Source: Eledone cirrhosa (lineage: Eukaryota). From it: 64,000 nt of DNA. The stretch spans positions 359,910,001-359,974,000 of the forward strand of contig OZ024743.1 of NCBI GenBank assembly GCA_964016885.1, in the 5' to 3' direction. The translations under genes and the position numbers were made by a program. Shown one piece after another: positions 5,310 through 57,600 of this stretch (positions within the stretch are counted from its first letter, which is position 1; the number at the start of each line of letters is the position of its first letter). The notes beneath the pieces were generated by a model. That model was not told where the DNA came from and ran no database searches. It worked only from the letters and a program-made list of their open reading frames with translations.

Positions 5310-6497
5310 TAATGAAAAATTGAACAGGGACAGAACAGAGAGGCAGTACGACAAATGTTTATTAAATTCACGCTCAGGAGAGTGGGGGGTAGGTGGAGGA
5401 CGACGTTTCGGGCATAAGCCCTTCTTCAGGTGAGAGTTCAAAAGGTGTGTAGGGGAGTGGTCGAGAGACATATAGCGAAAGGAAACGGTGCGAATGAAAA
5501 ATTAACAAATAAAGACAAAAATATAATAAATAATAAATAAAAATAAAGCATGATCAAAATACAAGGAATGAGAACATTTAAAAATAAAGGCATGATCAAA
5601 ATAAACTGAAATTAAAAGGGGCGTAAACAGGTGGTGGAAGGGTGTGGGGTGAGTAGAGGTGGAGGTGGGTGGAGTGGGGAGAGGGAGACGGGGTGTCCGA
5701 GCGGGGAGGGCTGAAGGTGGTGTGTGTGGTTAGGTGTGCGTGTGTGTGTGTGTGAAAGTGAGGGTTGGGGGAAGAACGGGGTTGCATGTTCAGGAAGTGT
5801 GTGTGGGGGGTGTTTTTGTGTGTCGGAGGGTCTGTGCGTGTGTGGATAGGGGGGTGGGGGAGAGGAATCAGGGGGCTGAGGGTGTAAATATGTGGTGGGA
5901 AGCACGTGTGTGTGGTTTAAGCGTGTTGTGGGTGTGGGTGGCGTGTGGATAAAAAAAATTGTTTTGGGATGTGTGTGTGGGTGAGTTATATAGGTGATGG
6001 TGTTAGAGGATGGTTGAAAGTGGTAAGTTACACGGATGTATGGAGATTTTGGTTGGAAGTCGAACGCGTGTGGGTAATCCAAGAATCGGTGGTCGGAAGA
6101 GGAGAGATGTGGGGTGCGCGCGCAACAGGAAGTGGTCAGCAGTGGAAGTGCTGTGGTCAGTTGGTGCTGAGACAGTGGTCGGAAGGGCATAGCAGCAGTC
6201 AGCGGAATGGTAGGGAGGCGAGGATGGGTAGGTGTGAGAGTTGGAGTGAGGAGGGTGTGTGTGTGTGTGTGTGTGTATTAGTAGGGGTGTTAGTGGGATG
6301 AGTGAGTGTGGAGTGGGGAGAGAAGGGTGTGTGTGGTTCTATGGAGGGAGTGTGGTGTACTTGTGTGTGTGTAGTTTGGTGAGGAGGTGTTAGTGGGTGT
6401 TAGTAGACGGGAGGTGGGGAGGGGTGGAATGCAGGTGTGAGTGGGGGTTAGTGGGGGTAGGGTGTGTAGAGTTGGTGGTGTGTAGAGTTGGTGGTGT
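5310..6497 (-). mobile_element. PLE 3' UTR/pseudo-LTR (C/A-rich on the sense strand) between (TA)n tracts
   Basis: Minus-strand HHR core followed by AATAAA, with strong strand asymmetry. Confidence 0.6.
5400..5432 (-). ncRNA. Minimal PLE-type hammerhead motif
   Basis: CTGAAGA-A-GGGC-TTAT-GCCC-GAAA-CGTC. Stem I is only about 2 bp. Confidence 0.65.
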
Positions 6498-6537: not shown

Positions 6538-6654
6538 ATAAATTGAAATAAAATGAAAACGAAATTTCATTTCTCACTCTTAGTATGGTACTTACTTAAA
6601 TGTAAGTATGCATGTATACGTACATACATATATGTATACAGACGTACAGTAGCA

Positions 6655-6703
<49 letters not shown>

Positions 6704-6857
6704 GCATACAGGTACACATACATATATGCCCGTATCAGTTTAGCGGACGCTTATTATAACGCCGCTTTGTTCGTTTGTAAACAAACTGAACAGCCTGAAT
6801 TTATGCCATACGGTGTTAAGGCAACCACGTCACCTTTTTGTTCAACACTGACACAGG

Positions 6858-6902
6858 AACGATGTACTAGTTTCAAGCTTGTTAGCTATCATCAGCACCG
6901 TT
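6858..6902 (-). ncRNA. Type-I hammerhead ribozyme, family 1
   Basis: Reverse complement of AACGGTG-CTGATGA-TAGCT-AACA-AGCTT-GAAA-CTA-GTA^CATCGTT. Confidence 0.85.
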
Positions 6903-7137
6903 TACCCATCTGCCAGATAGTTGAACGTTCGAAAGTATATACTTTCCTTATGAAAATTAACGGCTGAGCAGCCTAATTTGCATATTGAGTGAGTTAAATC
7001 GGTCAGGTATACCGAAAACGATAAATTGAAATAAAATGAAAACGAAATTTCATTTCTCACTCTTAGAATGGCACTTACTTAAATGTAAGTATGCATGTAT
7101 ACGTACATACACATATGTATACAGACGTACAGTAGCA

Positions 7138-7171
<34 letters not shown>

Positions 7172-7328
7172 TAAGCATACAGGTACAGATACATATATGC
7201 ACGTATCAGTTTAGCGGACGCTTATTATAACGCCGCTTTGTTCGTTTGTAAACAAACTGAACAGCCTGAATTTATGCCATACGGTGTTAAGGCAACCACG
7301 TCACCTTTTTGTTCAACACTGACACAGG

Positions 7329-7373
7329 ATCGATGAACTAGTTTCAAGCTTGCTAGCTATCATCAGCACCGTT
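7329..7373 (-). ncRNA. Type-I hammerhead ribozyme, family 1, GUU-triplet variant
   Basis: Same fold with substitutions at the cleavage site, loop II and the end of stem I. Confidence 0.7.
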
Positions 7374-7494
7374 TACCCATCTGCCAGATAGTTGAACGTT
7401 CGAAAGTATATACTTTCCTTATACGGCTGCTAGCCGTTAATTTTCATAAGGAAAGTATATAATTTCGAAAGTTCAACTATCTGGCAGATGGGTA

Positions 7495-7539
7495 AACGGT
7501 GCTGATGATAGCTAACAAGCTGGAAACTAGTACATCGTT
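7495..7539 (+). ncRNA. Type-I hammerhead ribozyme, family 1
   Basis: CTGATGA 7502-7508, GAAA 7523-7526, palindromic ACTAGT stem III, predicted cleavage after GUA at 7532. Confidence 0.85.
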
Positions 7540-7693
7540 CCTGTGTCAGTGTTGAACAAAAAGGTGACGTGGTTGGCTTAACACCGTATGGCATAAATTC
7601 AGGCTGTTCAGTTTGTTTACAAACGAACAAAGCGGCGTTATAATAAGCGTCCGCTAAACTGATACGTGCATATATGTATGTGTACCTGTATGC

Positions 7694-7801
<108 letters not shown>

Positions 7802-8039
7802 GCATGCTACTGTACGTCTGTATACATATATGTATGTACGTATACATGCATACTTACATTTAAGTAAGTGCCATACTAAGAGTGAGAAATGAAATTTCGT
7901 TTTCATTTTATTTCAATTTATCGTTTTCGGTATGCCTGACCGATTTAACTCACTCAATACGCAAATTAGGCTGCTCAGCCGTTAATTTTCATAAGGAAAG
8001 TATATACTTTCAAACGTTCAACTATCTGGCAGATGGGTA

Positions 8040-8084
8040 AACGGTGCTGATGATAGCTAACAAGCTTGAAACTAGTACATCGTT
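8040..8084 (+). ncRNA. Type-I hammerhead ribozyme, family 1
   Basis: AACGGTG CTGATGA TAGCT AACA AGCTT GAAA CTAGTA CATCGTT. Confidence 0.87.
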
Positions 8085-8238
8085 CCTGTGTCAGTGTTGA
8101 ACAAAAAGGTGACGTGGTTGCCTTAACACCGTATGGCATAAATTCAGGCTGTTCAGTTTGTTTACAAACGAACAAAGCGGCGTTATAATAAGCGTCCGCT
8201 AAACTGATACGTGCATATATGTATGTGTACCTGTATGC

Positions 8239-8309
<71 letters not shown>

Positions 8310-8463
8310 TGCTACTGTACGTCTGTATACATATATGTATGTACGTATACATGCATACTTACATTTAAGTAAGTGCCATACTAAGAGTGAGAAATGAAAT
8401 TTCGTTTTCATTTTATTTCAATTTATCGTTTTCGGTATGCCTGACCGATTTAACTCACTCAAT

Positions 8464-8512
8464 ATGCAAATTAGGCTGCTCAGCCGTTAATTTTCATAAG
8501 GAAAGTATATAC
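8464..8512 (+). promoter_or_regulatory. Octamer + PSE-like element + TATATA (candidate snRNA-type promoter), repeated in most monomers
   Basis: ATGCAAAT at 8464, 8991, 9496, 9983 and 6976 (minus), with a mutant at 7958. It is followed after 8 nt by TCAGCCGTTAATTTTCATAAGGAAAG and then TATATA. Confidence 0.5.
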
Positions 8513-8544
8513 TTTCGAACGTTCAACTATCTGGCAGATGGGTA

Positions 8545-8589
8545 AACGCTGCTGATGATAGCTAACAAGCTTGAAACTAGTACATCGTT
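8545..8589 (+). ncRNA. Type-I hammerhead ribozyme, family 1, one stem-I mismatch
   Basis: Core 8552-8558. The 5' strand of stem I is AACGCTG. Confidence 0.8.
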
Positions 8590-8743
8590 CCTGTGTCAGT
8601 GTTGAACAAAAAGGTGACGTGGTTGCCTTAACACCGTATGGCATAAATTCAGGCTGTTCAGTTTGTTTACAAAAGAACAAAGCGGCGTTATAATAAGCGT
8701 CCGCTAAACTGATACGTGCATATATGTATGTGTACCTGTATGC

Positions 8744-8836
<93 letters not shown>

Positions 8837-9071
8837 TGCTACTGTACGTCTGTATACACATATGTATGTACGTATACATGCATACTTACATTTAAGTAAG
8901 TGCCATACTAAGAGTGAGAAATGAAATTTCGTTTTCATTTTATTTCAATTTATCGTTTTCGGTATGCCGGACCGATTTAACTCACTCAATATGCAAATTA
9001 GGCTGCTGAGCCGTTAATTTTCATAAGGAAAGTATATACTTTCGAACGTTCAACTATCTAGCAGATGGGTA

Positions 9072-9116
9072 AACGGTGCTGATGATAGCTAACAAGCTGG
9101 AAACTAGTACATCGTT
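9072..9116 (+). ncRNA. Type-I hammerhead ribozyme, family 1
   Basis: Core 9079-9085, same fold. Confidence 0.85.
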
Positions 9117-9270
9117 CCTGTGTCAGTGTTGAACAAAAAGGTGACGTGGTTGCCTTAACACCGTATGGCATAAATTCATGCTGTTAAGTTTGTTTACAAA
9201 CGAACAAAGCGGCGTTATAATAAGCGTCCGCTAAACTGATACGTGCATATATGTATGTGTACCTGTATGC

Positions 9271-9341
<71 letters not shown>

Positions 9342-9576
9342 TGCTACTGTACGTCTGTATACATATATGTATGTACGTATACATGCATACTTACATTTAA
9401 GTAAGTGCCATACTAAGAGTGAGAAATGAAATTTCGTTTTCATTTTATTTCAATTTATCGTTTTCGGTATGCCTGACCGATTTAACTCACTCAATATGCA
9501 AATTAGGCTGCTCAGCCGTTAATTTTCATAAGGAAAGTATATACTTTCAAACGTTCAACTATCTGGCAGATGGGTA

Positions 9577-9621
9577 AACGGTGCTGATGATAGCTAACAA
9601 GCTTGAAACTAGTACATCGTT
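9577..9621 (+). ncRNA. Type-I hammerhead ribozyme, family 1
   Basis: Core 9584-9590, same fold. Confidence 0.85.
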
Positions 9622-9772
9622 CCTGTGTCAGTGTTGAACAAAAAGGTGACGTGGTTGCCTTAACACCGTATGGCATAAATTCAGGCTGTTCAGTTTGTTT
9701 ACAAACGAACAAAGCGGCGTTATAATAAGCGTCCGCTAAACTGATACGTGCATATATGTATGTGTACCTGTA

Positions 9773-9828
<56 letters not shown>

Positions 9829-10063
9829 TGCTACTGTACGTCTGTATACATATATGCATGTACGTATACATGCATACTTACATTTAAGTAAGTGCCATAC
9901 TAAGAGTGAGAAATGAAATTTCGTTTTCATTTTATTTCAATTTATCGTTTTCGGTATGCCTGACCGATTTAACTCACTCAATATGCAAATTAGGCTGCTC
10001 AGCCGTTAATTTTCATAAGGAAAGTATATACTTTCGAACGTTCAACTATCTGGCAGATGGGTA

Positions 10064-10108
10064 AACGGTGCTGATGATAGCTAACAAGCTTGAAACTAGT
10101 ACATCGTT
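10064..10108 (+). ncRNA. Type-I hammerhead ribozyme, family 1
   Basis: Core 10071-10077, same fold. Confidence 0.85.
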
Positions 10109-10262
10109 CCTGTGTCAGTGTTGAACAAAAAGGTGACGTGGTTGCCTTAACACCGTATGGCATAAATTCAGGCTGTTCAGTTTGTTTACAAATGAACAAA
10201 GCGGCGTTATAATAAGCGTCCGCTAAACTGATACGTGCATATATGTATGTGTACCTGTATGC

Positions 10263-10302
<40 letters not shown>

Positions 10303-10347
10303 GCTACTGTACGTCTGTATACATATATGTATGTACGTATACATGCA

Positions 10348-10390
<43 letters not shown>

Positions 10391-10393
<3 letters not shown>

Positions 10394-11825
10394 ACTGTTT
10401 CATTCGAATCAACATCACTGTTTCATTCCGAATCAACATCACGGAACAGGGAAGGATCCACTGCAACTTCTACCGAATGGCAGCCTGCAAGGACCTGTTC
10501 GTTCACTACAAGTCCGCCCTCCCTAACAGTGCCAAAAGAGGATGCATCACGAACGAGATCGCGCGAATCAAAAACAGATGCAGCGATCCCGCGAGTGATG
10601 TCACTCATACCAAGCGATTCCTCGAGGTGCTGGAGACGAACGGGTACTCTACCTCGATCACAGACAGAATAGGAGACACCAGACGCAAAAGACAGAGAGG
10701 CACCCAAGGCAAGTGCCTCCTTAAAATGTCACACCTGGGCGAGAATACCACCAACGCTATCCGCAAGGCTATACGGAGGGAGGGCCTCGACATCCACCTG
10801 GCCCACTCGGGCCCCTCCCTGCGAAGATGCCTCTCCAAGAAACCCGGGAAATCTACTGACGCATGCTCCCTCAGAGACTGCCCGATACGCCATGCGAACT
10901 GTTGCCTACGCACATACGTCGTGTATGAGATAGAATGTGACAAGTGCAACCAATACTACATAGGTAGCACAATCCGACCTTTGCACATCCTTATCAAGTA
11001 ACACACTAAAACCAGGGCCTCACCTTTCCGGAAAAACATAGACAAATGCGGAAACAAAGACGGAAGGCCCATTGTCACAATTCTAGCGACTGAAAGAAAC
11101 GTCGGCACGTTACGTATCAAGGAAGCCCTTTTTATCAAACGCCTGCAACCGCAAATAAACAACCGATCAGAGAGAAGCGAAATGAGATGGCTGGTTTAAG
11201 CTAACAAACGATGCAGCAACACACGCACACACACAAACAAACGAGACAACAACACACGCACACGCACACACACACAGTAGCATTCCACCATACGAACATA
11301 CTACACTGCCAATACAGAGGAACACGGCAACAACACACGCAAACACACACACACTCAAGCGAGACAACAATACACGCACACGCACACACAGTAACATTTA
11401 ACATTTAACAGAGACTGGACTGACAGCTAGCGCCACCCCACTGCCTCATTCGGCCGCTGACCTCTGCCCGACCGACCCCATTTCACTCTGCCGAATACCT
11501 CAGATATTCAAAACAACAAACAGCGGAGGACGCGTTTCGCACCTGTCCGACAGACTACATTTCCCCCACCCCAGAAAAACCCCCAGTTGATGGATGTGAA
11601 TCCGAAATATATAGGGACTATTAAATCTCTCCTAAGGTAACTCTCTCTCGTGTTGTTATTTTTATTTTATCCTTTATACTCTTTCCTTCATTCTTCTACA
11701 CATCTCATACACACCACACATCTCAACGTACACCCACTTACATCTCTCTCTCCACCACCTGATCTTGTTACCCGGAGATTTACCCATTTGCATTGTCGAG
11801 GCTTCCAAACGACTTAAAGATATTT
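10391..11825 (+). mobile_element. 5'-truncated PLE: RT thumb, GIY-YIG endonuclease (in-frame stop at 10999), 3' UTR and decayed HHR (11581-11616)
   Basis: [10 protein letters not shown]...[33 protein letters not shown]. The frame continues past the TAA to IKEALFIKRLQPQIN. HHR relic: CCC-CAGTTGA-TGGAT-GTGA-ATCC-GAAA-TATATA-GGG. Confidence 0.88.
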
Positions 11826-17842: not shown

Positions 17843-18157
17843 CTCTACATGGCATAATACAATAAATGTATTCTGAGTTTTTCGAATATTAATAATAACA
17901 TCCGATTCGTTTGCAATTATGCAAAGAAGCCGCAATTTTATACCCATGTCAGTAGAATGAACCCTTCATTCTTGCTCTTGTGTGGGCATGTGAACAGAAC
18001 TGCAGCCACTAATGTTTCTGGGTATCACCCTTCATCAGTACAGCTCACTGTTCACCTGCCAAACTGTCAGAGCTAGTGAATATATATGCTATTTTCCAAA
18101 ATACACAGTGACGGATCGGTGAACAGTGAGCTGTACTGATGAAGGGTGATACCCAGA

Positions 18158-18161
<4 letters not shown>
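17843..18161 (-). mobile_element. Dispersed copy of HHR family 2 with an inverted terminal segment, between (TA)n tracts
   Basis: Homologous to 35957-36235. HHR at 17992-18053 has a mutated cleavage site. Inverted partial HHR at 18119-18160. Confidence 0.8.
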
Positions 18162-18195
<34 letters not shown>

Positions 18196-22088: not shown

Positions 22089-22382
22089 ACTTTCCTTATG
22101 CATATTAACGGCTGGCAGAAAGGTATACGTTGCTGACGATAGCTAATAAGCTTGAAACTAGTACAGCGTTCCTTTGTCAGTGTTGAACAAATGAGCAACG
22201 ATGGTTGCTAGACACTGTACGGCTTAATTCGGGATCTTCGTTTACAAACACACCGAGCATTATAATAAATGTTCGGTGAATCCATACGTACATATATATA
22301 TGTATGCATGTATACATACATGCACACATATATATACATACTACTGTACGTCTGTATACATATATGTATGTACGTATACATA

Positions 22383-22385
<3 letters not shown>
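22089..22385 (+). mobile_element. Diverged solo copy of family-1 retrozyme-like repeat with intact HHR (22127-22169)
   Basis: ACGTTG-CTGACGA-TAGCT-AATA-AGCTT-GAAA-CTA-GTA^CAGCGT. The downstream body is homologous to the array monomer and ends at (TA)n. Confidence 0.85.
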
Positions 22386-22444
<59 letters not shown>

Positions 22445-26296: not shown

Positions 26297-27332
26297 TGTA
26301 GAAGATCACGCCACCTAGCTTTGACTTTAGAGCAGTCGATTAACTGCCATTAGTTCTGACGTCACGTTCTGACGTCAGTAGCTGAATACACTCTCTTTCA
26401 ACTTTGTGTCTTGATGCGAGCAGACGCATTTCACTGTGGCGAAACAGCGATATTGCACCATGCGGTCACGGAATATTTAAACACCGCCACTTAATGATAA
26501 TTACGAATTACCAATCGAGGAGCAAATGATATGATAACCTGTTTTGTTTATTGCTCTGATTAAAATGCTCATGTACATATAATCTCGATGTATGTTCTTT
26601 TTGCTTAATTGTTTACCTACACCTAACAACAAATAGAAGAGATGTCTATCAGCCAAGCTAGGGAAACGACCTCCCCTCTAAATCGCAAAACAACGCAGCC
26701 TTCTAAAATGGTGAGCATCGCTCCTAAAGTGGTTGACCCCGAACATCGAACACTATAAAATGGCAACCTTCCGATACAACATGTGGTTGAACATTTATAA
26801 GCGAAACACTTATATCTTCTATTATGCTATTCTCTGGGCAGTGAATATATAACAAACCCCCCCCCCCAAAAAAAAACAAAGAAAAAATGATTATCAACAT
26901 TTTTGAACATTTTTTTTAAAGCAGACAAACCAAAAGAAAAAGAAGAATTCTTATTTTTTGTAATGGCCGATCATTTTCCCGCCAATTTTCTTTCTTCTCC
27001 GAAATGCACCCATCTGATTGGCTGAGACACATCACGTGATGCCGTCTTTTCCCGACCTTAACTGAGCAGCGTGATATGCTGTCGATATATATTTTTCTGA
27101 GAGTTCCTGCCATGATGTGATTTGACTTGTCGACTTCGGATTGTTTTTTACTAATTCTCCGGATTATTTTCCCTGCTATGGACACTTGAGAACATTTATT
27201 TTTTTATGTTCTTCTGCCTTTATGGATGTTGAGGAAATTTGCTGTTTTCCCGTTGTTCTGAACATCTAAAGAAATTTCTGCATTCTTTTTCCGTGAATAT
27301 CACTTACTTTTATACGTCCAAGTTGATATAGA

Positions 27333-28111
27333 TTGACAACGAGTGGTCCTAATTTACCTGCGTTCTCAGGTGATCCCAAACTCTGGTTTGCACAATTCGA
27401 CGTATATTTAGCTGCAAACGGAGTGAAAACAGAGCAAAAGCTCATCGTTTTGATAAGCGGCATTCTTTCTTCACTCGCTACAACGGTGAAGGATTTAATA
27501 ACGGACGCGCCAAACGGTACGTCGTATGATTCTTTGAGGACGGAAATATTAAGGAGAAACTGCCGTTCTGCTGAGAGCAGGTTTCGTGCATTATTGGAGG
27601 ACGAGTGTTCAGGCGACAGGTCGCCGTCCGAATTTTTACGCTACATTCGGGACCTCAGCGAATCGCCCGATCAGGATAGTTCATTTATAAAAAAACTATT
27701 TTTCTCTCGCATGCCAAACAACGTCCAGATTATCTTGGCGAATATTGTAGATACCAGATCTTTGGAGCAGATGGCTGTCTCCGCTGATCGGAGCGTAGAA
27801 TTTTTTAGAAAGGCTACCGCCCCGGACCCGTGTGTTGCTTTTTCTTCAATTTCGAACCAGCCCGTCTCGACACGTTAAAGGCTATTGACGCTTTGAGGCA
27901 GCAAGTCGCTCGTTTATGCAGGGAGAATAGGCCGTATTCACAGCGGCCTAGGAGTCGTTCGGGTTCTTTCGCGACTCCACGTCAGCATACTACTTCGCCC
28001 GCCAGCAATCCATTATTTTGCTGGTATCATGCCACCTTCGCGGATAAGGCAAAACATTGCCGGACTCCATGTAAATATTCAGCTTCGGGAAATGCAGATC
28101 AGAGTCATTAA
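27333..28111 (+). pseudogene. gag: Gag, frameshifted near 27870
   Basis: LPAFSGDPKLWFAQF, GDRSPSEFLR and the CHCC motif CWYHATFADKAKHCRTPC. Confidence 0.9.
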
Positions 28112-30990
28112 AGGCGGCAAGTGAACTCTGCGAGACACAACAGAAACGCCATTTCTTCATAGAGGACATCCTGTCTGAAAGAGCCTTCCTCGTAGACATA
28201 GGAGCTTCGTGCATTATTTGGCCTGTTAATTGTATGACAGTAACTCCTCCCGAGTCGTCGATTGAATTGCAAGCTGTCAACCAGTCACCAATCCGAACTT
28301 TTGGACAGATCTCGCTTCCTCTTCAGTTTCGAAATCTTCGTCGTGATTTCAAATGGGTTTTCACGGTTGCCAACCTTCCATACCCGATTTTCGGGGCGGA
28401 CTTCCTGCACAATTTTTCTTTGACGGTGGACGTCCGTCACCAATACCTAGTCGACGATATGACTGGTTTTTCTCTTTGTGGCAGGACAGCAGAAGTTTCT
28501 ACAGTTAGCCCGACATTCTTCATCGCTAACTCCGGAAACCCATATCATGGAAATTTTAGAGTCACTGATCCAAACTACGCCACGGAGCATTTTATTACTA
28601 CTACTGGTGCTCCGGTTTTTTCGCGTCCCAGTCGATTGCCAGCGGACAAACTGAAAGCAGCACGGTCCGAGTTCGATCATATGCTACAGCTTGGAATTAT
28701 TCGTCCTTCCCCGAGCTCGTGGGCATCTCCATTACATATGGTGCCAAAATCTTCTGGCGATTGGAGACCCACAGGGGATTATAGACGATTGAACTCGATG
28801 ACCGTACCGGATCGGTATCCTCTCCCTCATCTGCAGGATTTTGCATCCTCGTTGCAAGGTTGTAACATTTTTTCGAAACTCGATTTGATACGAGCCTATA
28901 ACCAGATTCCTCTCAACAGAGACGACATCCCGAAAACGGCTATAACTACGCCATTTGGATCTTTTCAATTTCTCACCGTGCCTTTCGGGTTAAGAAATGC
29001 TGCTAGCACCTTCCAGCGATTTATGGATGAAGTCACTCGCTGCCTTGATTTTGTATACACATATATTGATGATCTTCTTTATGCTAGCTCTTCTCCAGAG
29101 CAACATCTGGACCTTCTATTTTGTTGTTTGAGGGATTACAATGTTCGGATTAATTCATCAAAATGTTATTTTGGTTCCGAATCTCTGAATTTTTGGGGCC
29201 ACGTCATTGACGCTGACGGTATTTGACCTATTCCTAGGAGAGTTAAAGCTATAGAGGATTTTCCTCCACCAACCTCACTCCGTCAGTTGCGCCAATTATT
29301 GGGGCTGATTAATTTTTATAGGCGGTTTGTGCTTAATTGTGCTAAGCTACTCTTCTCTTTGACGGACATTTTGAAATATTGCCGAAAGAAAAATGAAGAC
29401 ATTTCTTTGAATGAAACTCAGCTCGAGGATTTTGAGAATGCGAAAATTGCTCTAGCCAATGCATCTTTGCTGGCTCACCCAGTGTCCAATGCTAAGCTTT
29501 CGCTTTGTGTTGATGCGTCGGATACTGCCGTGGGCGCAGATTTACAACAAAGTAGGAATGATCAACAGCAAACGTTGGAATTTTTCTCCAGGAAGCTGAA
29601 ACCTGCCAAAACCCGCTACAGCACCTTGGGACGGGAGTTGTTAGCTATATACCTATCGGTGAAGCATTTTTCGCACATGCTTGAAGGAAGAACGTTCACC
29701 ATCTTCACGGACCACAAGTCATTGACATTCGCCTTGCAAGCAAAGGCCGACAAATACTCGCCCAGAGAAACTAGACATCTCGACCTCATCTCTCAATTTA
29801 CTAATGATATTCAACATATTCCGGGTTCTATGAATAGAGCGGCCGACGCCCTGTCTCGTTTGCCGATTGCTTCTATCTCGTCGTCCGATGACATAGATTT
29901 GAATCGCTTGGCAGCCGATCAGCCTACCCTCGAATCGTAGGATGTTACTTCGTCTGAATTTGTGAATTGCAGGATGAGCCACGCCCTTTTGTTCCGTTGA
30001 ACCATCGTCGAACTGTGTTTCTTGTTTACACGGCATTTCACATCCAGGATCTTCTGCCACATTAAAACTCATAACGGCTAGATTCTTCTGGCCAAATATG
30101 AGACGTGATATTACTGCTTGATGCCTTTCCTGGTTTGCTTGCCAGAAATCAAAAGTTCACAGGCCTGTTAAGACTCCTCTAGGTACTTTTAGTAACCCGG
30201 TTTCGCCACATTAATGTGGACATCGTGGGACCTCGGCAATCAGCGGTGGCCATAATTACATATTGACTGGTATCGATCGTTTTTCACGATGGCCTGAAGC
30301 CACCCCCTTGAAAGATATCACTGCTGAGACGACAGCGCGTGCCCTTGTGTCTGGATGGATCGCTCGATATGGAGTACCAACGTCAATTACCACGGACCGT
30401 GGAAGGCAGTTTGAATCGAATCTCTTCCATGAATTAACGAACATCATCGGCGCTAAACGCATCCGAACTACCACATATCATCCTGCCTCTAATGGAATGG
30501 TGGAGCGTTTCCACCGACAACTAAAAGCCGCTCTACGGACTTCTCCTGACTCTACGCGTTGGAGCGAGTACCTCCCTATTTTGTTGTTGAGGATTCGGTC
30601 AACAATAAAGGAGAACCTCGGGTTCTCCCCGGCCGAATTATTATATGGTGCTGCTCTAGCGTTACCTGGGCAAATGCTTGCCCCTGGCGATCTTGCTGCA
30701 CAAGATCCGCTTTCCTACGTATCCCGTCTGCGTTCTTATTTTCAGGACCTGCCGCCGATGGATACGAGGAAGCAAACTGTAAAATCTGCAGTCCCGAGGG
30801 ATTTTGCCTCGTGGACCCATGTGTTTGTGAGAAACGATGCTGTGAGACCACCTCTCACACAACCATACTCTGGACCCTACCGTGTATTAGCTCGTTCCGA
30901 GAAACATTTGACTGTAGACATTAAGGGTTCCAGAGAGACGGTTTCTATTGATCGACTCTAACGAGCATATTTGGACAGACGCTATCACAC
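28110..30990 (+). pseudogene. pol: Pol (protease, RT, RNase H, integrase) with stops and frameshifts
   Basis: FLVDIGAS; [21 protein letters not shown]; DASD, RELLAIY, TDHK; [37 protein letters not shown]. Confidence 0.93.
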
Positions 30991-35862: not shown

Positions 35863-36107
35863 AATATATTACACAAATATAAGTGTGTTACACAGTGAGA
35901 TGTGTGTAAAGAATTATTGCAAGTGAGTTTTATACATATATATAAAAAGAAAATTTCCCTCTACATGGCTGAATACAATAAATGTAATCTGAGTTTTTCG
36001 AATATTAATAATAACATTCGATTCGTTTGCAATTATGCAAACAAGCCTCAATTTTATAGCCATGTCAGTAGAATGAACACTTCATTCTTGCTGTTATGTT
36101 GGCATGC

Positions 36108-36169
36108 GAACAGAACTGCATACACTAATGTTTCTGGGTATCACCCTTCATCAGTACAGCTCACTGTTC
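36108..36169 (-). ncRNA. Type-I hammerhead ribozyme with long bulged stem I, family 2
   Basis: GAACAG-TG-AGCTGTA-CTGATGA-A-GGGT-GAT-ACCC-A-GAAA-CATTAGT-GTA^TGCAGTT-CTGTTC. Confidence 0.85.
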
Positions 36170-36199
36170 ACCTGCCAAACTATCAGAGCTAGTGAAAAT

Positions 36200-36247
36200 A
36201 TATGCTATTTTCAAAAATACACAGTGACTGATCGGCCAGATTTGCAT
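36200..36247 (-). promoter_or_regulatory. Octamer + PSE-like element upstream of the family-2 HHR
   Basis: Minus strand: ATGCAAAT (36247-36240), 12 nt, TCACTGTGTATTTTTGAAAATAG, CATATAT. Confidence 0.5.
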
Positions 36248-36689
36248 ATTAGTAGACTGGCTGATCCGTCAGATGTGCATATCAGCAGACTCGCCAGTCA
36301 GTTTCCTGTATACGAGCGATAAATGGCCGGCTTTGCCATATTCAAGTAAAAAAAGAAAATTTCGCTCTACATGGCTGAATACAATAAATGTAATCTGAGT
36401 TTTTCGAATATTAATAATAATTGTTCGCATGCCAACATAAGAGCAAGAATGAAGTGTTTATTCTACTGACATGGCTATAAAATTGAGGTTTGTTTGCATA
36501 ATTGCATACAAATCGAATATTATTATTAATATTCGAAAAACTCAGATTACATTTATTATATATATATGTGTGTGTGTGTGTATGTGTTACCGTTAGTAAG
36601 TTAGATACATATATGTGTGTATACCCTTCCTTCCTTTTACACACACATACATTCACACAAATAGACATTTTGTTATGGACGGATGGACA

Positions 36690-44268: not shown

Positions 44269-44684
44269 AAAGTTCTATTTAAAATTGTTGGGATACAACA
44301 AGTAAATATTTTTATAACTGATATAAAGCAATCGACAAGTATTTGGTGTAGATATACGATATTAATAAATGGAAACTATATTTATAAAACCATATTTATT
44401 TCATTATACATATTTCAGGGATACCAAATTAAGGTATGCCTTCATCAGACAAAATACAATATATAACAGTTTTACAAATAAGCTTTGACGTACCCTTTTA
44501 AAATGCAACCATTATTTTTGGAAAATAATGGTTGCATTTTAAAAGGGTACGTCAAAGCTTATTTGTAAAACTGTTATATATTGTATTTTGTCTGATGAAG
44601 GCATACCTTAATTTGGTATCCCTGAAATATGTATAATGAAATAAATATGGTTTTATAAATATAGTTTCCATTTATTAATATCGT
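44267..44684. mobile_element. Second copy of the 25180 hairpin family, with HHR at 44584-44643 and a mirror copy
   Basis: Palindrome centred near 44520. TATTTTGT-CTGATGA-AGGCATACC-TTAATTT-GGTATCCCT-GAAA-TATGTATA^ATGAAATA. Confidence 0.82.
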
Positions 44685-45193
44685 ATATATATATATATAT
44701 TAATGTGTTAGCTCTAACATAGCTGTATACATACAAGTAGTCGATAACTGTATATGCAAATGAGGCTAATCGGCCCATATGCATAGGTGTTAAACATATA
44801 CAAGATACGCTGTATACATGCATGTATACAATTATATTAGAACTCATACATTAATTCTATTTTCCAGACGAGCTATCCGATACGTCTATATGCAAATGAA
44901 GCTAATCAACCCATGTACAATAGTATCAAAATTATGTTTTCGCCTATATTGAGTCTCAGCAGAGAACAGGGTAAAGGAATACCAGCTTGAGAATAACCAG
45001 AGTTAGAAACAATGACGTCTTCGTCGTCAGCTACCCAGCATTTGCTTTTGCCTTCCTGATGATTTCTTTGGAATGAAGCTGTCCTACTCCTGTAGAAGTC
45101 AATTCTATATTAAATTTGATGTTTACACTGTACTAAAATATTGAGGACCTTACTGTAGTTTCCACCGGTTGAACCCACGACTCACGTTTATAA

Positions 45194-48786: not shown

Positions 48787-50529
48787 CAAATAGTAGAAAG
48801 GAAAAATATTTTTCCTGTAGAAAATGTTGAAGAGATATTTGTGGTGAAATTTCAAAGCATTAATTTATTTACAATACCGGTTTCAGCATTAAAGGCATTA
48901 TCAATTGCGGATATGCAGAATATTGTTAGGTTGCATATTTGTACAAATAGTGAAAATAATGATAAGAATAAAAAAAATATAGAGAGGGGAAGAAAAGTTC
49001 ATTTTCACATACGTCATCCTTCAGAGAAGAAAGTCATTTTGTCTGTCCATCCTTCTCTGCTAATGGCTTTGTTGTGACTGGAGTGGGTAGAAGCAGGAGG
49101 GGAGAGGAGAAGAAGAAGGAGCGGGAGGAGGTAGGGGATGGTTGAATAGTGGCTACAAGGTTTGGCTGGATTGCTTTGAAAGGCTGCGTGACCTTAGAGT
49201 TGACTGTGGGAGCTTGCTTCTAAAATTATCTATCTTGGTATGTCTTAGAAGAAATCATCAATATTGACTTTGTTTTTTTGCCACAAAGATGTTTTAGAGT
49301 TATTGAAATATTAATTCCATCTCTAGCAGGAATTTTAGATTTAGTGGGATGGAGAAAATATTGCTACAAAGCCACTGGAATACCAATTCTATATTCAGCA
49401 GAAACTTCCAGATTCAGGGGAATGTAAAGCATTTAGTTTGGCACCTGAATGTTTCCATTTATCTGATTATCTTCGTGGAGGTCCTCCAGGACTTGTTGAT
49501 GTGGGTGTTACTATTTGGGTGCTTGGTCTGCATTATATAGTTGTCAGAGGTGCTGGAAGTTCCACTTCAAACAAGGACAATACTTCACAGTTAAGTGCAA
49601 TTTCACATGTGAATCAGAAAATCTGATATATGTGTTGACCTGCTCAGGTTGTTGAGAGCACTACATAGGACGGACTAAAAACAGCATCCGACAACGTGTG
49701 ACCGTCCATAGATCCTAAATCAAAATACGGGAATACAGAAAGATAGCACTAAGTGAACACATCGCGACCCAAGCATCTGATGAACAACCCAATTTTAGAA
49801 TTTTTCCCATCTTCAAATTCAAAGACAACGGTTCCTACATCCAACGCATTAGCAAGGAATCACAATTTTTCGCCACATACGAACCCCTTCTAAATGCTTC
49901 CATTTCGGACTAAAACAAAGCTGGCACACTTTAAAATCAACACCCTAGACAAATTAACACTTTAGCAATGTATGCTTCTCCAAGATTCCAGCAAACTCTG
50001 ACAACTATATAATGCAGACCAAGCAACCACATTATAACACCCACATCAGCAGGTCCTGGAGGACCTTCACGAAGATAATAAAATAAATGAAAACATTCAG
50101 GTGCCAAACTAAATGCTTTACATTCCCCTGAATCTGGAAGCTTCTACTGAAGATAGAATGGGTATTCCAGTAGCCCTAAACCCTGTAGCAAACATTTTTT
50201 TCATCCACCTAAATCTAAAGTTCCTGCTAAGGATGGAAATAATATTTCAATAACTCTAAAACTTCTTTGTGGCAAAATAAACAAGGTCAATGTTGATGAT
50301 TTCTTCTAAGACATACCAAGATAGATATTTTTAGAAGCAACCCCCACCCCCGGTCAAATCGAAGGTCACCCAGCCTTTCAAACCAATCCCAGCCAAACCT
50401 TGTAGCCACCCTGGGTCCCACATAGCAGTCTGCAGCCACAACAACCATCCCCTAACTCCTCCTCCTTCTTCTACTCTCGCCTCCTGCTTCTCCCCAGTCC
50501 AGTCACAACTAAGCCATTAGCAGAGAAGA
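48762..50529 (+). mobile_element. PLE GIY-YIG fragment bracketed by ~500-bp inverted pseudo-LTR arms
   Basis: 49565-49910 reads FTVKCNFTCESENLIYVLTCSGC*EHYIGRT...QRVTVHR...RISKESQF..YEPLLN. Arms ~49051-49548 and ~49996-50529. Decayed minus-strand HHR at 48871-48908. Confidence 0.85.
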
Positions 50530-52815
50530 ATTTGTATCCCTCTTCAGTGTCAATTTTCTTTATCATCTCACCTGTTGGTACCTGGATTCCGTAGCTTCTG
50601 CTCAATTTACCCCTCTTCTTCACTAGGACTCCACACTTATTAATACCAAATTCCATACATATATCATTGCTGAAAATACGGACAGTGTCAACAAGTACAT
50701 CAAACTCCTTCTCACTCTTGCCAAAGAGTTTAAGATCGTCCATGAAGATGAGGTGGTTGATGGTAAGCTCTCCTCTTCCCAACTTGTATCCTCTTCTCAC
50801 GTTTCGCAATATAACGGACAGGGGTATCTGGGCAAGGACAAACTGCAGAGGGGACAAACTATCTCCCTGAAAGATACCTCTCTTGATTTTCACGCCTCCC
50901 AAGGAATCTCCACCTGATGTTAACTCTGTTTCCCAGGAATTGATACTTTTGCTCAACAACTGTCTGATGTTATCTGCCACCTTGAAGATCTCTAGGCTTT
51001 TGGTTATCAAAGAATGTGGTACCATGTCGAATGCCTTTTTGTAATCTATCCATCCCATGGTAAGACCAGTGTGCCTCTTCTTACAATTCCTCATTACCAT
51101 CTTATCAATAAGTAACTGGTATTTGGTACCACGGGACTTCTTTCGGCATCCTTTCTGTTCGTCCGGTAACAAGTTGTTTATGTGGAGGTGATGGTAGATT
51201 TCCTCAGATACAATGCTTGTTAACAGTTTCCAAATTACGGACAGACATGTGATAGGCCTATAGTTGATAACATTCATTACCAGAACTGTGGTACCTCTTG
51301 TCAACCACTCTGGTACCTCACCCGACATCAAGCAGTCATTGAACATGGTTGTCAGTTTCGGGAGGAGGGATGTTATATTTTTAATCCAATACCCCTACAC
51401 ACCATCTGGGCCTGGTGATTTCCAGTTGGTTAGTTTTTTGGCCTGCCATTTAAGAGTTTCAACTGTGATACTTAAATCAGTTTGTTGGTGTGCTTGTTCA
51501 CTAATCTCCTTTTGTACTGTTTCAATCCACACTGCCTGATCATTTTGTTCAACATCCTGCTCCCATATTCCTCTCCAGAATGTCTTAGTTTGTTCCGCCT
51601 CAGGGATCATGTCGTTGCCTCTTTCTTTCCCTTCAAGCTGTCCAAACAACATCTTCTGGTTCTGTCTATACTGTCTATACTGACTGACTCTGCTCTCGTA
51701 TCGCCTAATCTTTGCACTCTTTGCTACAATGCGTTGCTTCAGTTCCTCTATGATAATATTAAGCTTGTTCCTCCTAGTGTTGTACTTTATTTCCAGTCTA
51801 TTTTTAGTGTCTATGTTTTGTAGTGTCCCATTCAGTAGGGACTCAAGCTTTTCAATGTCATTTCTCATTTCCCTCATTTGACAATTCAGTCGTTTCTTCC
51901 ACCAAGGTTCTAATATTTCTTGTTTGTTGTTTCCTCTCATTTTTACGCAAAGTAATTTCCTCACCGCATTTGCTGTTGCTTTGAGGATATTGTTGCATTG
52001 GTGAAGGCTCCTCGCCTCAAGGTATGGGATGCATTTGTTTACCTTAGCTGTTGTTTCTTTTAACATTTTCCTGTCTACAAATCTTAGGTTCAAAGGTTTT
52101 CCACTATCATTGTTCATTTCATCTACCACTAAGTTTAGGATATCAACCAGATCTTGTCCTAGCCTGTCTGCATTATTCCCTCAATGGCCGCATCTTTGTT
52201 CCAGATGTTATTTATGTCAGCATTCAGATCATTGTCTGCTTCGGATGCTTCCTCCGGTCTCTCAACCTCTTCACCTTCATTTCCCACTAGCTCGTTTGCC
52301 TGGCATACTCCACTCTCCATTTCCAACCTAATCTATCTGCTCAGTTCCTCCAGTTCCAACTCGCTTATCCATCCATTAATTCTTATTACCCGGGCCTGCC
52401 CGGCCAATTTTTGTTCATCTAATTTAAATAGACCAATCTCGTTCCAGATGTTATGCATCCGTTTCCTATAGCCTTTTCCCTTGGGGTTACTCTTCAGGTA
52501 ACATTGCATAACAGTTCTATTCAATTCTTTCGTCCTGTTGGTTCTTGCCCCTCTCCTTCTTCTTCTTCCTCCAACACCAGCAGTATTTAGATGACAGCCA
52601 AGTCGCTGCTGCTGGGCCAGGGTGCACTCGCTGAGTGACAGTCTGTCACATAACGTTCCAGTCTCCTCTTCACCGTTATTCGAACTGTTTAAGTTCGACA
52701 TTTAAGCACTCATATCGAGGATTGGTGAATTACATAACCTCCCTTGATTTCATCACCCCCAGTGATTTCATCACCCTCGATGATTTTAGCGTGGCACTAT
52801 CAGGCTGTAGACGAA
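50530..52815 (-). mobile_element. R4/Dong-like non-LTR retrotransposon, 3'-truncated and frameshifted
   Basis: WKSPGPDG, YRPITCL, EQKGCRK, IDYKKAFDMVPH, GIFQGDSLSPL, FMDDLKLF. Confidence 0.9.
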
Positions 52816-53630: not shown

Positions 53631-56600
53631 AGTTGCAGTTATCTTGCTTTATGTTCATACGAGTTATCACCAAGTCACAACCAGTGACCTCAAGAGAAAA
53701 CAAGGTCCGCCATGTTCAAGAAAGAACATACATATTCACACATGCATCTTTAGTGTTTAGACTTGTGATGTACTTATATTGACAGAATCTTCCTTAGTAT
53801 ATGGGCAGTTCCCATTAGTACTATCTTTTGTATTTCTCCTATACGCGGGTTTCCTGGGATTTGAGATAAGTAATCATTAGACCCGTTAGGTATCATTCCC
53901 AGAGCGCCTACAACCACTGGTATTGTTTTAGTTCTCAATTTCCACATTTTTTCAATTTCTATCTCCAGGTCCTTATACTTGCTCAATTTTTCAAATGTTT
54001 TTATAGATACATTCTTGTCTATTGGAACAGACATATCAATTAGCAGGCATACCCTCTTTTGAAAGTCTTTCAATATTATATCAGGTCTGTTTGCATCTAT
54101 TTTTCGGTCTGTTTGGATGCTAAAGTTCCACAAGATTGAGATGTGATCTTTTTCAAGTATGGGAGGTGGTTGATACTCCCACCAATTCTTTTGATGGGGC
54201 AGGTCAAAATGCTTACACATTATCCAATGTATGTATTGTGCAGCTCTGTCATGCCTGTTTAGGTATTCGGTTGGAGCTATAGGACTGCACATTGAAATTA
54301 TATGGTCAATGGTCCCTGGTTGTTTTTTGCATACACGGCATAATGGGCTGCACCCATTTTTTATTATGTTGGCTTGGTTAATTTTTGTTGGCAGACACTG
54401 ATCTTGTGCCGATATAATCAGTCCTCCAGTCTCCGATTTCAGTCCAGAGGATGCCAACCACTGATGGGTTAAAGTTTTGTCAACATCAGGATTGTTAGCT
54501 CGCTCTGGGTATTTTCCATACAGAGGCTTTTCTTGCCATTTCATAGCCAGTTTCTGTAGCAGTTCTTTCTTTGCAGTTACTTTTACCTGCTTTGCTTTTT
54601 CTGTGTTTTCCATTTCAGCAGTAAATGGGACTTCTGAAATTTGTAGTCCATTACTGTATCTTTGTGCATCTTTTGTAATGGAATATGATCTTTTGATGCT
54701 TTCGTGTTTCAAAACGAGTTTGATCATCCAATCATGTGATTCCCTTAGATATGTAGATAATCCAATTGTTGCAGTTTTCAACGCAATGTCTAACTGGATT
54801 AACCCACGCCCTCCTTCTTTCCTAGGGAGATATATTCTATCTATATCTGCCTTAGGGTGATGCATTCTGTGCATAGTTAAGAATTTTCGAATATTTGTAT
54901 CGAGCCTACGGATCTCTGTGCTTGACCAGTTGATGACATTGTAACTGTAGGTTACTACTGGTATGGCAAGCGTGTTTATGGCATCGATCCTATTCCTTGC
55001 ATTCAATTCCGTTCTTAAGATTGCTCTTACTCTGCGGTAACATTCCTTCCTTATCCTTTCCCTCATTGTTGAGTGCTTGATTCCGTCTCCTTCACAAACA
55101 CCTAGATATTTGTACGTTTTTTTCTTGATCAAGTTCTCTTATCACGTTCCCCCGATCAAGATTAATGTCTGAACTCTTCAGCAGCGTTCCGCTGGTGAAC
55201 GTTGCTTTGGCGCATTTATCTAGTCCAAACTCTATTTTAATGTCATCACTGAACTGCTTCACAGTGGATAATAGCCCTTGCAATTGTTCATCATTTTTTG
55301 CAAATAGTTTCAGGTCATCCATGTAGAACAAATGATTAATGGTTTTGTCATAGACTTTATATACATGTTTTGTTTCATTGAGCATTTTACTTAATGGTAT
55401 AAGTGCGATGCAGAATAAAAGCGGTGATAAAGAGTCACCCTGAAAATTTCCACAATTAATATTAACTTCTCCAGCTTCCAGTGATTTTGTTTCACTATTC
55501 AAAAGGAGTGTCGTTTTCCATGTCTTCATACTGAATGACAAAAACCTCCTGACAACGGGGGATATTTTGAAAATCTCTAAACATTTTTCAATCCAACTGT
55601 GTGGCAAACTATCGAATGATTTTTTATAATCTATCCAAGCAATCGATAGATTTTTCTGTCTATTATGACAATCTTCCAGTATCATTTTGTTAACCAGAAG
55701 CTGATCCTTACAGCCATATGAGCCTCGTTTACACCCTTTCTGCTCAATGGGAAATAGGTCATTTGTTATCAGGTGGTCATATGTGTATTCAGTTAGGACT
55801 GATGTTAAAATTTTATACATTGTGGTCAAGCAAGTTATCGGTCTGTAATTTTTGGGATTGTTTGTCTCATCATTCTTCGGAAGCAGGAATGTAATGCCGT
55901 TAACTAGCCATGAAGGTATCTTTTCTGGCTCCTTAACTATTTCATTGTAAAGTTGGGCTAACAGCTCATGAGACTCTGTGAAGGCATTTATCCAAAAGTT
56001 TTGTATTTTGTCTTTTCCTGGGGATTTCCATTTGCTGGTTTTTCTTAGAGCCAAGCGCAACTGTTCAACTGTTATATTTTCCCATGTTTGTTCCTCAAGG
56101 TGAGCTGTGTCTTTCATTTGTCTGTCTATCCATGGGGCATGTATGTTATGAACTTTTTCTTCGGCCCAGATCTTTTCCCAGAATTCTTGCACTTCCTCCT
56201 TGGGTGGTATTGATTTAGCAGTTATTGTTGACTTACCAATTTTTCTGTAGAAGTTTCTTTGGTTGTTTTTGAACATATTATTGTCCTTATAGAATCTAGA
56301 TCGTTTTTCAAAGCGCCTTATACGAGCAGCTTTGGCCGACACGTTTTGCTTGATTATTTCTATCAGCATGTCTATGTCACTTGTTGATTTTATACTGTAC
56401 TTTCTTTTAAATTTTCTAAGTTTAGTTTGTTTAACATGTTCACCTACTTTATAGATTGTTAAAATTTCTATGTCAGATTGGAGAAGGTTTATTTGGCGAT
56501 TGATGTTCTCGTGCCAAGTAGATTTCTTGTGGGAATTCCTTTGTTTTTTCATCTTCGCTCCACATAAGTGAGTGGTGACTTTAGCCGATGCATAATAGAG

Positions 56601-57600
56601 ATGAGTTAAATCAGTAATGTTTAGTTTGTTTGTGATGATAATGTTTTTGAGAATTATGTTAGTCTTGTGTATTATCTTTTGGTTCTGTTTGGAATTCTGG
56701 ATCTTAGGGAGGGTGTCTCGTTTCCCCATGTCAGATTCTTTCATTTTCATCCATTCGATCATAATTTCATTCTTCAAGTTGGCAGTTCATTCTCATTCAT
56801 TTCTTTATCATTTACGATCTCATTATTTTCATTTGGAGTTTCATCCTGAGCATGCACTCCCTCCACTTTTTCGATCCTTTCTTTAATTTGTTCTGTTGCC
56901 AGTGATTCCGCCCCAACCCTGGGATTCGAAGTGTTACAGTTTACCTCGTTTTCACTGACACATGTTTCATTTTCCCTTCGCTGACTTTGTGCTAATAGCT
57001 TGATCTGATCAATTTCTGTATCAGTTAGTAACTTTTTTCTTACAATATTTCTTCGTATATTGGCTAGTTTGTTACTGTCAATATAGCCTCTGTTTTCGGG
57101 ATGTTTCTTTTTCCAGTTGATATATGTCTGTTCTGTATTCGATGTATTTGATGGGTAGTACATGGCAGTGTAGAAAGCCTCAAGGACTTCTTTATTATCT
57201 TCCCTTGACCATTTTTCTCTCTTTTTCTTTGGATTTCTTGGTGGTGAGCATGGAGAGCCAACAGTAGGAGTATTCCGGTTATGGGAGGTCTCCAGCTCCG
57301 AAGTGATGGGAAGGTTTGAACCATTAGCTGATTTTTCGACCCCAGTCTGGTTCCTCTCTGAGGGACGCGGCCCTTTTTTACCCGGGTGACGGCCGATCCG
57401 GTATGAGGTTTTATCATTAGACATTTACTTTATTTTGTCGCGTTTTATCCTTATCCGCCAAGGGGTAATCATTTCGTGTTACCACTTCTAGAACGAGTGT
57501 CAACCAAGACTAGAGGGGTCGTTCTCCCCTAGAGACACGGCTATTCCCCGCCGGCCGCCATCCAGGTATTTCTTGGTCACGGGCTTTTCTTTTTGTTGTT
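53597..57600 (-). mobile_element. Near-intact R4/Dong-like element with an (AAT)n 3' flank
   Basis: Single long ORF broken into three pieces (RT, CCHC knuckle, RLE). (TAA)n at 53597-53628 fits Dong target preference. Confidence 0.93.
53774..57424 (-). pseudogene. RT / restriction-like endonuclease polyprotein with two frameshifts (~56775, ~55120)
   Basis: QGDSLSPL, YMDDLKLF, CRVCKKQPGTIDHIISMC, RHD, RPDI..LIDMSVP..KLSKYKDL. Confidence 0.92.

Follow-up and report, generated by a model that had tools for sequence, protein, structure and literature searches.

According to published reports, animal retrozymes are strongly expressed in all tissues tested. Newt satellite 2 is reported to carry an internal promoter of the snRNA type that is used by Pol II, as described in the available portions of two papers (PMC2220036 and PMC6765202) that cite Coats, Zhang and Epstein 1994. 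In the canonical clades of Penelope-like elements, hammerheads lie in the pLTR (excerpts of bioRxiv 10.1101/2021.04.23.441226). As far as it was available, the main text of Cervera and de la Pena 2020 (PMC7229834) names no endogenous promoter and uses the word "promoter" twice, both times for T7; the word is absent from the available main text of Li, Clavereau and Pollet 2026 (bioRxiv 10.64898/2026.07.22.740005). The main texts searched, mostly from outside the subscription journals, contained no snRNA-type promoter in an invertebrate retrozyme, and its only snRNA-type precedent was in newts, in the 1994 study.

The window analyzed here is a 64,000-nucleotide stretch (G000:C4:359910001-359974000) of a 3.0-Gb genome with 36% GC (64% AT) in sampled DNA. 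In two families of hammerhead repeats within it, F1 and F2, the ribozyme is preceded by an octamer, then a PSE-like element, then a TATA-like box (together called the cassette here). Judging from sequence comparisons, we consider it likely, at a probability of about 0.62, that the cassette of each retrozyme unit is its own snRNA-type promoter, probably one for Pol II.

Hammerhead repeats in the window and across the genome

By their anatomy, F1 and F2 are tandem or dispersed type I hammerhead repeats of the non-LTR retrozyme class: the tandem units are short and non-coding, and each has a single type I hammerhead. Unit lengths are 487 bp in F1, 430 bp in its subfamily F1b, 406 bp in F2, and 466 bp in F3. 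Length variation among F1 units stems from an internal (TA)n tract, and F2 occurs mostly as single copies (same-strand tandem at 1 of 30 loci). The window contains the following repeats and associated features:

7425-10351, plus strand: F1 tandem array with six hammerheads in units of 487-545 bp, 5'-truncated, 3' end into (TA)n
6538-7422, minus strand: inverted F1 copies with two hammerheads, head-to-head with the plus-strand array
8545-8589, plus strand: F1 type I hammerhead; stem I 8545-8551/8583-8589, core 8552-8582
22112-22392, plus strand: copy of the F1b subfamily, truncated at the 5' end and with an inversion inside the cassette
35944-36561, minus strand: complete F2 insertion, running into (TA)n at its 3' end (35944), inverted piece at 36423-36561
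36113-36162, minus strand: F2 type I hammerhead with an 8-bp stem I; core 36154-36121, cut predicted to follow 36121
17843-18164, no strand assigned: another F2 insertion, consisting of an inverted pair cut short within the cassette
44349-44691: inverted pair of an abundant octamer-less hammerhead family, with no octamer or PSE match
44754-45020, plus strand: two older cassettes (octamer, +8, PSE-like), at 44754 and 44890
10394-11199: presumed Penelope-like fragment, 5'-truncated, abutting the F1 array through a (TA)n tract

The ribozymes of F1 and of the F2 copy at 36154 have the CUGANGA/GAAA/NUH core and three helices and are open at stem I; in the F2 copy at 18038, the NUH triplet is no longer present. 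An Rfam scan of the window gave no match at the gathering score. Its hammerhead models returned only weak HH9 matches for F1 (E = 0.11 and 0.32; 17-18.5 bits, cut-off 52) and no hammerhead match for F2. The hammerhead assignment is based on the core and the stems and not on these Rfam matches; stem sequences differ across F1, F2, F3, F5, and F7, yet the pairing is kept. Stem III of F1 is the palindrome ACUAGU, and the predicted cut follows GUA at 8582. A 2-bp stem III of this kind (the newt type) may need dimers to cleave. The F1 stem extends to about 8531-8600, with a private mismatch in stem I of the 8552 copy, and when extended it folds no better than shuffles; the extended stem of F2 folds with a z score of -5.0. 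The word TGGCAG, which the initial annotation had noticed shortly before stem I in both families, is indeed present in each as part of the 5' arm of extended stem I.

Genome-wide, an octamer followed 65-95 nt later by a hammerhead core was matched 33,076 times (repeat copies, so non-independent events) versus 0 times for the reversed pattern, and a pattern variant for rarer families was matched 708 versus 5 times. In the window alone, octamer enrichment is weak (12 versus 6.75 expected; 5/100 shuffles). Within an 800-kb sample drawn regardless of the octamer, 10 of the 12 F1 ribozymes have the exact octamer (one more has a single mismatch and one is truncated), as do the sole full F2 copy and three of the five F3 copies, the other two being truncated. 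Another abundant hammerhead family has the octamer in none of its 14 copies in this sample, and no PSE match was detected in the four copies scored; the cassette is therefore specific to certain lineages.

Alignment between F1 and F2 monomers is limited to the cassette (72% over 58 nt, E = 0.012), and the F1-F3 alignment reaches 67% identity. Past the core, F1 and F2 are both similar to F5 (p = 0.005 for either family). Because F5 bridges both families, the simplest reading of these alignments is that F1 and F2 are probably distant relatives within one diverged superfamily with a conserved cassette. Independent capture of the cassette by F1 and F2 was also considered and is unsupported, given this intermediate family.

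Other retroelements were recognized by eye: we take 27327-30961 to be a broken Ty3/gypsy-like retrotransposon (gag-, RT-, RNase H-, and integrase-like frames), and 50471-52180 and 53774-57424 (minus) are presumably two non-LTR retrotransposon-like RT remnants. A minimal Penelope-type hammerhead-like motif was also observed at 5400-5429 (minus).

The cassette compared with host snRNA promoters

Host genes for U1, U2, U4, U5, U6, U6atac, and RNase MRP were retrieved, which defined the snRNA promoter layout of this species as a by-product. For Pol II, 17 distinct promoters (U1/U2/U4/U5) were chosen from 100 loci, roughly one per cluster or variant; one motif-less U4 locus (L184) was excluded. In these promoters, the PSE begins with YCAG or TCAA at -56 to -58 and has T at +8 (17/17), a TATA-like word lies near -30, and a AATTAAAT-like block lies near -90 (PSE-33). 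An octamer near -75 is absent from all 17. Among the Pol III genes, five loci selected after inspection (three U6, one U6atac, and MRP; L091, L092, L093, L351, and L359) have an octamer at -76 to -78, exact in three and with one mismatch in two, and a TATA box at -30. Seven other U6 and eight other U6atac matches lack an octamer at that position and are retrocopy-like, and one variant U6-array unit has a TATA-like word without an octamer. The TATA element is located at PSE+23 to +29 in 14 of the 17 Pol II genes and at PSE+30 to +32 in the five Pol III loci. In fly snRNA promoters, the Pol III spacing is 4 bp longer, and the difference measured in this genome is similar. Further observations on the host genes are that those for U2, U1, U6, U5, and U4 occur in long tandem arrays (contigs C3, C2, C19, C9, and C1, respectively), that a 3' box resembling AAAATCAGAC is found in Pol II snRNA genes, and that at one locus (L355) an inverted F2 fragment including the cassette directly abuts a U6atac copy, possibly through a template switch in reverse transcription.

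The cassettes of the two families in the window consist of the following elements:

8464-8471, plus strand: F1 octamer ATGCAAAT, in the extended context TATGCAAATTAG, like that of host U6/U6atac/MRP promoters
8480-8513, plus strand: F1 PSE-like block (TCAGCCGTT from 8480; 34-nt matrix window), 1.1 bits
8536-8538, plus strand: predicted F1 transcription start, PSE+56 to +58
36240-36247, minus strand: F2 octamer, with the core at 36154, 85 nt past it
36198-36231, minus strand: F2 PSE and TATA-like block, beginning at octamer+8 (TCAGTCACTG); 17.7 bits, a strong match to the host matrix
36175-36173, minus strand: predicted F2 transcription start, 54 nt ahead of the cut

In F1, the octamer-to-PSE gap is 8 nt, TATATA occupies 8506-8511, and the core CTGATGA begins at 8552, 80 nt past the octamer; the predicted start would lie about 46 nt ahead of the cleavage site. 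The motifs were found where the initial annotation had placed them in both families, including the cores 80 and 85 nt past the octamer, with one exception: it had set the F2 PSE 12 nt past the octamer, a register that scores 0.4 against 17.7 at +8. The starts that it expected near 8540 and 36168 shift to the predictions listed above. The near-equal octamer-to-core distance that it had stressed is true of these two copies and does not extend to the clusters described below (65-92 nt), in which the octamer-to-PSE distance is constant at 8 nt.

Among the eight F1 copies in the window, five have the exact octamer, one has a single mismatch, and two are cut by inversion; in one of the five exact-octamer copies, TGAG replaces TCAG. 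F2 has an octamer-like duplicate, ATGCACAT, at 36273-36280, 33 nt upstream. It belongs to a 33-bp duplication of the octamer unit (36228-36291), and many F2 copies contain two exact octamers about three helical turns apart. An octamer-like word was also observed on the opposite strand within the PSE region of F1 and F3 (ATGAAAAT, at 8490-8497; ATGCATAT in F1b); these are the families with the worst host PSE fit.

The host PSE matrix comprises 34 columns built from the 17 Pol II promoters, and the background comprises 1,593,322 positions in the 800-kb sample. At octamer+8, F2 (17.7) scores above every background position, and F1 falls in the top 0.48%; F1c scores -6.0 and F3 scores -14.1 (top 16%). 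When their own family is left out, the host genes score -0.8 to 21.8, with U1 and U4 promoters as low as -0.8 to 2.6, which places F1 at the low end of this range. Relative to sites already bearing YCAGYNNNT, F2 has p = 0.001 and F1 has p = 0.12 in the other columns. Of 64 sampled octamers, the 14 with a hammerhead-like motif downstream score 4.2 to -20.6 (one is probably a chance match), and the 50 without a downstream ribozyme all score ≤0.1. Scoring against the species' own PSE, as suggested with the initial annotation, therefore gave a strong Pol II snRNA-type match for F2 and the cluster set, a weak one for F1, and a failure for F3.

To cover the diverged copies, 223 units from fetched loci were grouped into 24 clusters at 75% identity, three of which were judged by eye to be chance matches and set aside. 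Of the 21 remaining cluster representatives, 17 score best at octamer+8 out of 17 registers compared (10 of 21 without the anchor columns). Column information across clusters correlates with the host PSE profile (rho = 0.66; 0.51 without the anchor, p = 0.004), although the 21 clusters are mutually related and the p-values overstate their independence. T at +8 is retained in 18 of 21 clusters, and a TATA-like word lies at PSE+23 to +28 in 16 of 21, as in host Pol II genes. The bases following the octamer ([GT]AG..T) are common to the repeats and host Pol III genes. At PSE-33, the repeats lack the AATTAAAT block (F1, p = 0.13; F2, p = 0.92) and have the octamer instead. No downstream 3' box exceeded chance in the monomers (best F2 match, p of about 0.24); the repeats are therefore not classed as snRNA genes, and the absence fits read-through. 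Compared with host U1/U2/U4/U5/U6/U6atac/MRP promoters, the cassette is, at the sequence level, a hybrid of a Pol III-type octamer with a Pol II-type PSE and PSE-TATA spacing. The initial annotation took octamer plus PSE to define snRNA-type promoters; in this genome the proximal octamer occurs in Pol III genes and is absent from the Pol II snRNA genes.

Several relatives vary the arrangement. The older cassette at 44890 scores 5.4 bits and is followed by a decayed hammerhead-like sequence, as judged by eye. F1c (L195 and L243) has an 8-nt deletion between TATA and ribozyme and still forms arrays; a de novo transcript would keep only about 6 nt of stem I. A PSE-anchored pattern, with 49,545 genome-wide matches versus 371, exposed two octamer-less families, F7 (311-bp tandem units) and F8 (L401-L415, L417, L424, and L428), with a PSE-like element, TATA at PSE+27, and AATT at PSE-33. 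F7 scores 9.5-10.9 on the host matrix (remaining columns, p = 0.007-0.03) and F8 is weak, so that their PSE resemblance is suggestive only.

Contigs of four runs were compared with F1: one run covers it deeply, two match by low-complexity ends only, and one contributes a single low-depth contig, so that no run was counted as evidence for F1 in other species. The deep run shows 19 variable places on F1, none of them in the octamer, a number that by rough estimate is too small to be meaningful.

Insertion anatomy and alternative explanations

F1 and F2 insertions bear the marks of Penelope mobilization, i.e., 5' truncation, an inverted 5' copy, and microsatellite targets. The 5' ends are variable, with head-to-head inversion at 32 of 55 loci, and of the 161 terminal copies, 133 have their end at (TA)n, compared with a background of 14.7%. 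The 3' ends group at two or three T/A-rich sites per family, and six F1 3' ends fall within the unit's own (TA)n tract. These preferred ends lie upstream of the next putative promoter, though the copies hold one ahead of the ribozyme; the template would thus have to cover a complete unit, being either a circle or a read-through multimer. Penelope coding fragments numbered 6 in 497 kb of repeat loci (flanks mostly ≤1.5 kb) versus 23 in the 800 kb sampled, and no autonomous Penelope partner was found near the repeat loci. The fragment at 10394-11199, which we take by eye to be Penelope-like (RT end and GIY-YIG-like motif), was considered as an F1 partner and rejected, as it has no Pfam match, no longer homolog was found, and such fragments are not enriched around the repeats. 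We regard it as a neighbor in a shared (TA)n tract.

In the cycle that we propose, the octamer would be bound by a POU factor and the PSE by SNAPc, and transcription would begin 56-58 nt past the PSE start, within the 5' arm of extended stem I. From there the polymerase would cross T-runs and the next unit's promoter up to the next hammerhead, and two cuts would free a monomer with the promoter near its 3' end, which may circularize. A Penelope-like reverse transcriptase would prime at U-rich sites on (TA)n targets, and copying more than one unit length would restore a promoter upstream of a ribozyme. Copying beyond one unit is how an upstream promoter, normally lost in snRNA retrocopies, could survive retrotransposition. 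Pol II is favored because of the PSE sequence and spacing and because the T4-T6 runs contained in the monomers would have to be crossed; no 3' box interrupts the unit.

Certain findings count against this reading: the weakly matching F1 and the low-scoring F1c and F3 belong to the most abundant families, the octamer is missing at this position from host Pol II snRNA genes, F1c forms arrays despite its deletion, and the search around the repeat loci yielded no autonomous Penelope partner. The first of these would suit a cassette derived from a captured snRNA promoter or a Penelope pseudo-LTR that has decayed or lost its role in the young, abundant families F1 and F3, the RNA being host read-through or mainly POU-driven. 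The second octamer-like word on the opposite strand within the PSE region of F1 and F3 points the same way, as does the abundant hammerhead family without octamer and PSE, which implies that spread needs no cassette. Nevertheless, the octamer, the 8-nt gap, YCA, and the TATA position persist in F1 and F3 while their flanks are at 67-74% identity, and the host's own U1 and U4 promoters also score as low as -0.8 to 2.6 with their family left out; we rate such decay as unlikely. That the resemblance arose by chance in AT-rich repeats is highly improbable: the window octamer count is marginal, the genome is 64% AT, and the copy counts are non-independent, but 17 of the 21 clusters share one best register out of 17, the information profiles are correlated, and no background position scores as high as F2.

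Another alternative is that the cassette is a functional type 3 Pol III (U6-like) promoter, with rare read-through of T-runs yielding the promoter-bearing template. In its favor are the octamer at -76 to -78 and TATA at -30 seen in three U6 loci, U6atac, and RNase MRP, the post-octamer bases shared by these loci and the repeats, and the major 3' ends of F1b, F2, and F3 at or just past T5-T6 runs; schistosome hammerhead repeats are Pol III-driven (available text of PMC6765202). Against this, the octamer-to-TATA distance is 38-40 nt in the five Pol III loci versus 34 nt in F1 and 35-37 nt in F2, the repeat PSE has a Pol II-type sequence (on the Pol II matrix, scores of the three U6 loci are -9.8 to -23.1), and each family has at least two preferred 3' ends, with the F1 end near 272 being away from a T-run. 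We regard Pol III transcription as quite unlikely. An snRNA-type promoter for Pol II in each unit, which we prefer, leads to specific predictions: a start at PSE+56 to +58, a requirement for two short motifs, and Pol II over Pol III. The F1c spacing variants and the cassette-free hammerhead family provide natural controls. Separately, the compact octamer-TATA U6 promoter could serve guide-RNA expression.

Relation to known systems

The widest version of the proposal is that host snRNA promoters drive animal non-LTR retrozymes in general, with the octamer/PSE superfamily and the unrelated F7 and F8 as instances and newts and invertebrates joined by deep homology or convergence. This generalization is tentative and, on balance, doubtful. 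If it were true, tens of thousands of SNAPc/POU cassettes would have been spread via circular ribozyme RNAs, and the constitutive expression reported for retrozymes would be accounted for.

The metazoan non-LTR retrozymes, in the available texts of PMC7229834 and bioRxiv 10.64898/2026.07.22.740005, are like F1 and F2 in consisting of short tandem units that are non-coding and contain a single type I hammerhead, and a circular RNA intermediate and Penelope-like mobilization have been proposed for them, as is proposed here. Penelope-like elements themselves (excerpts of bioRxiv 10.1101/2021.04.23.441226) share 5' truncation, partial tandems, an inverted 5' copy, and a (TA)n bias with the repeats, which, unlike those elements, have no ORF and no linked autonomous element that we could find. 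Schistosoma Sm-alpha, according to the consulted part of PMC6765202, has its promoter at the 3' end of cleaved monomers, such that tandem copies are needed, and the same would apply here; Sm-alpha is Pol III-driven, whereas the PSE sequence and spacing of the present repeats point to Pol II. The Drosophila PSEA/PSEB and PSEA/TATA promoters have a similar layout, with one SNAPc site plus a downstream element and polymerase choice tied to the PSE (available text of PMC1761439); the octamer present in the repeats is without mention in that text.

Newt satellite 2 is comparable in that it is described as combining a tandem hammerhead repeat with an internal snRNA-type promoter, and in its weak palindromic stem III, which resembles that of F1 (available text of PMC7229834). 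In the present repeats the octamer lies 8 nt from the PSE, and satellite 2 was compared on features other than its promoter spacing. Unlike the newt case, the host here appears, from the character of its genome, to be an invertebrate, and several diverged families share the cassette. What appears to be new, on these comparisons, is a hybrid cassette conserved over several families and matched to the host's own promoters.
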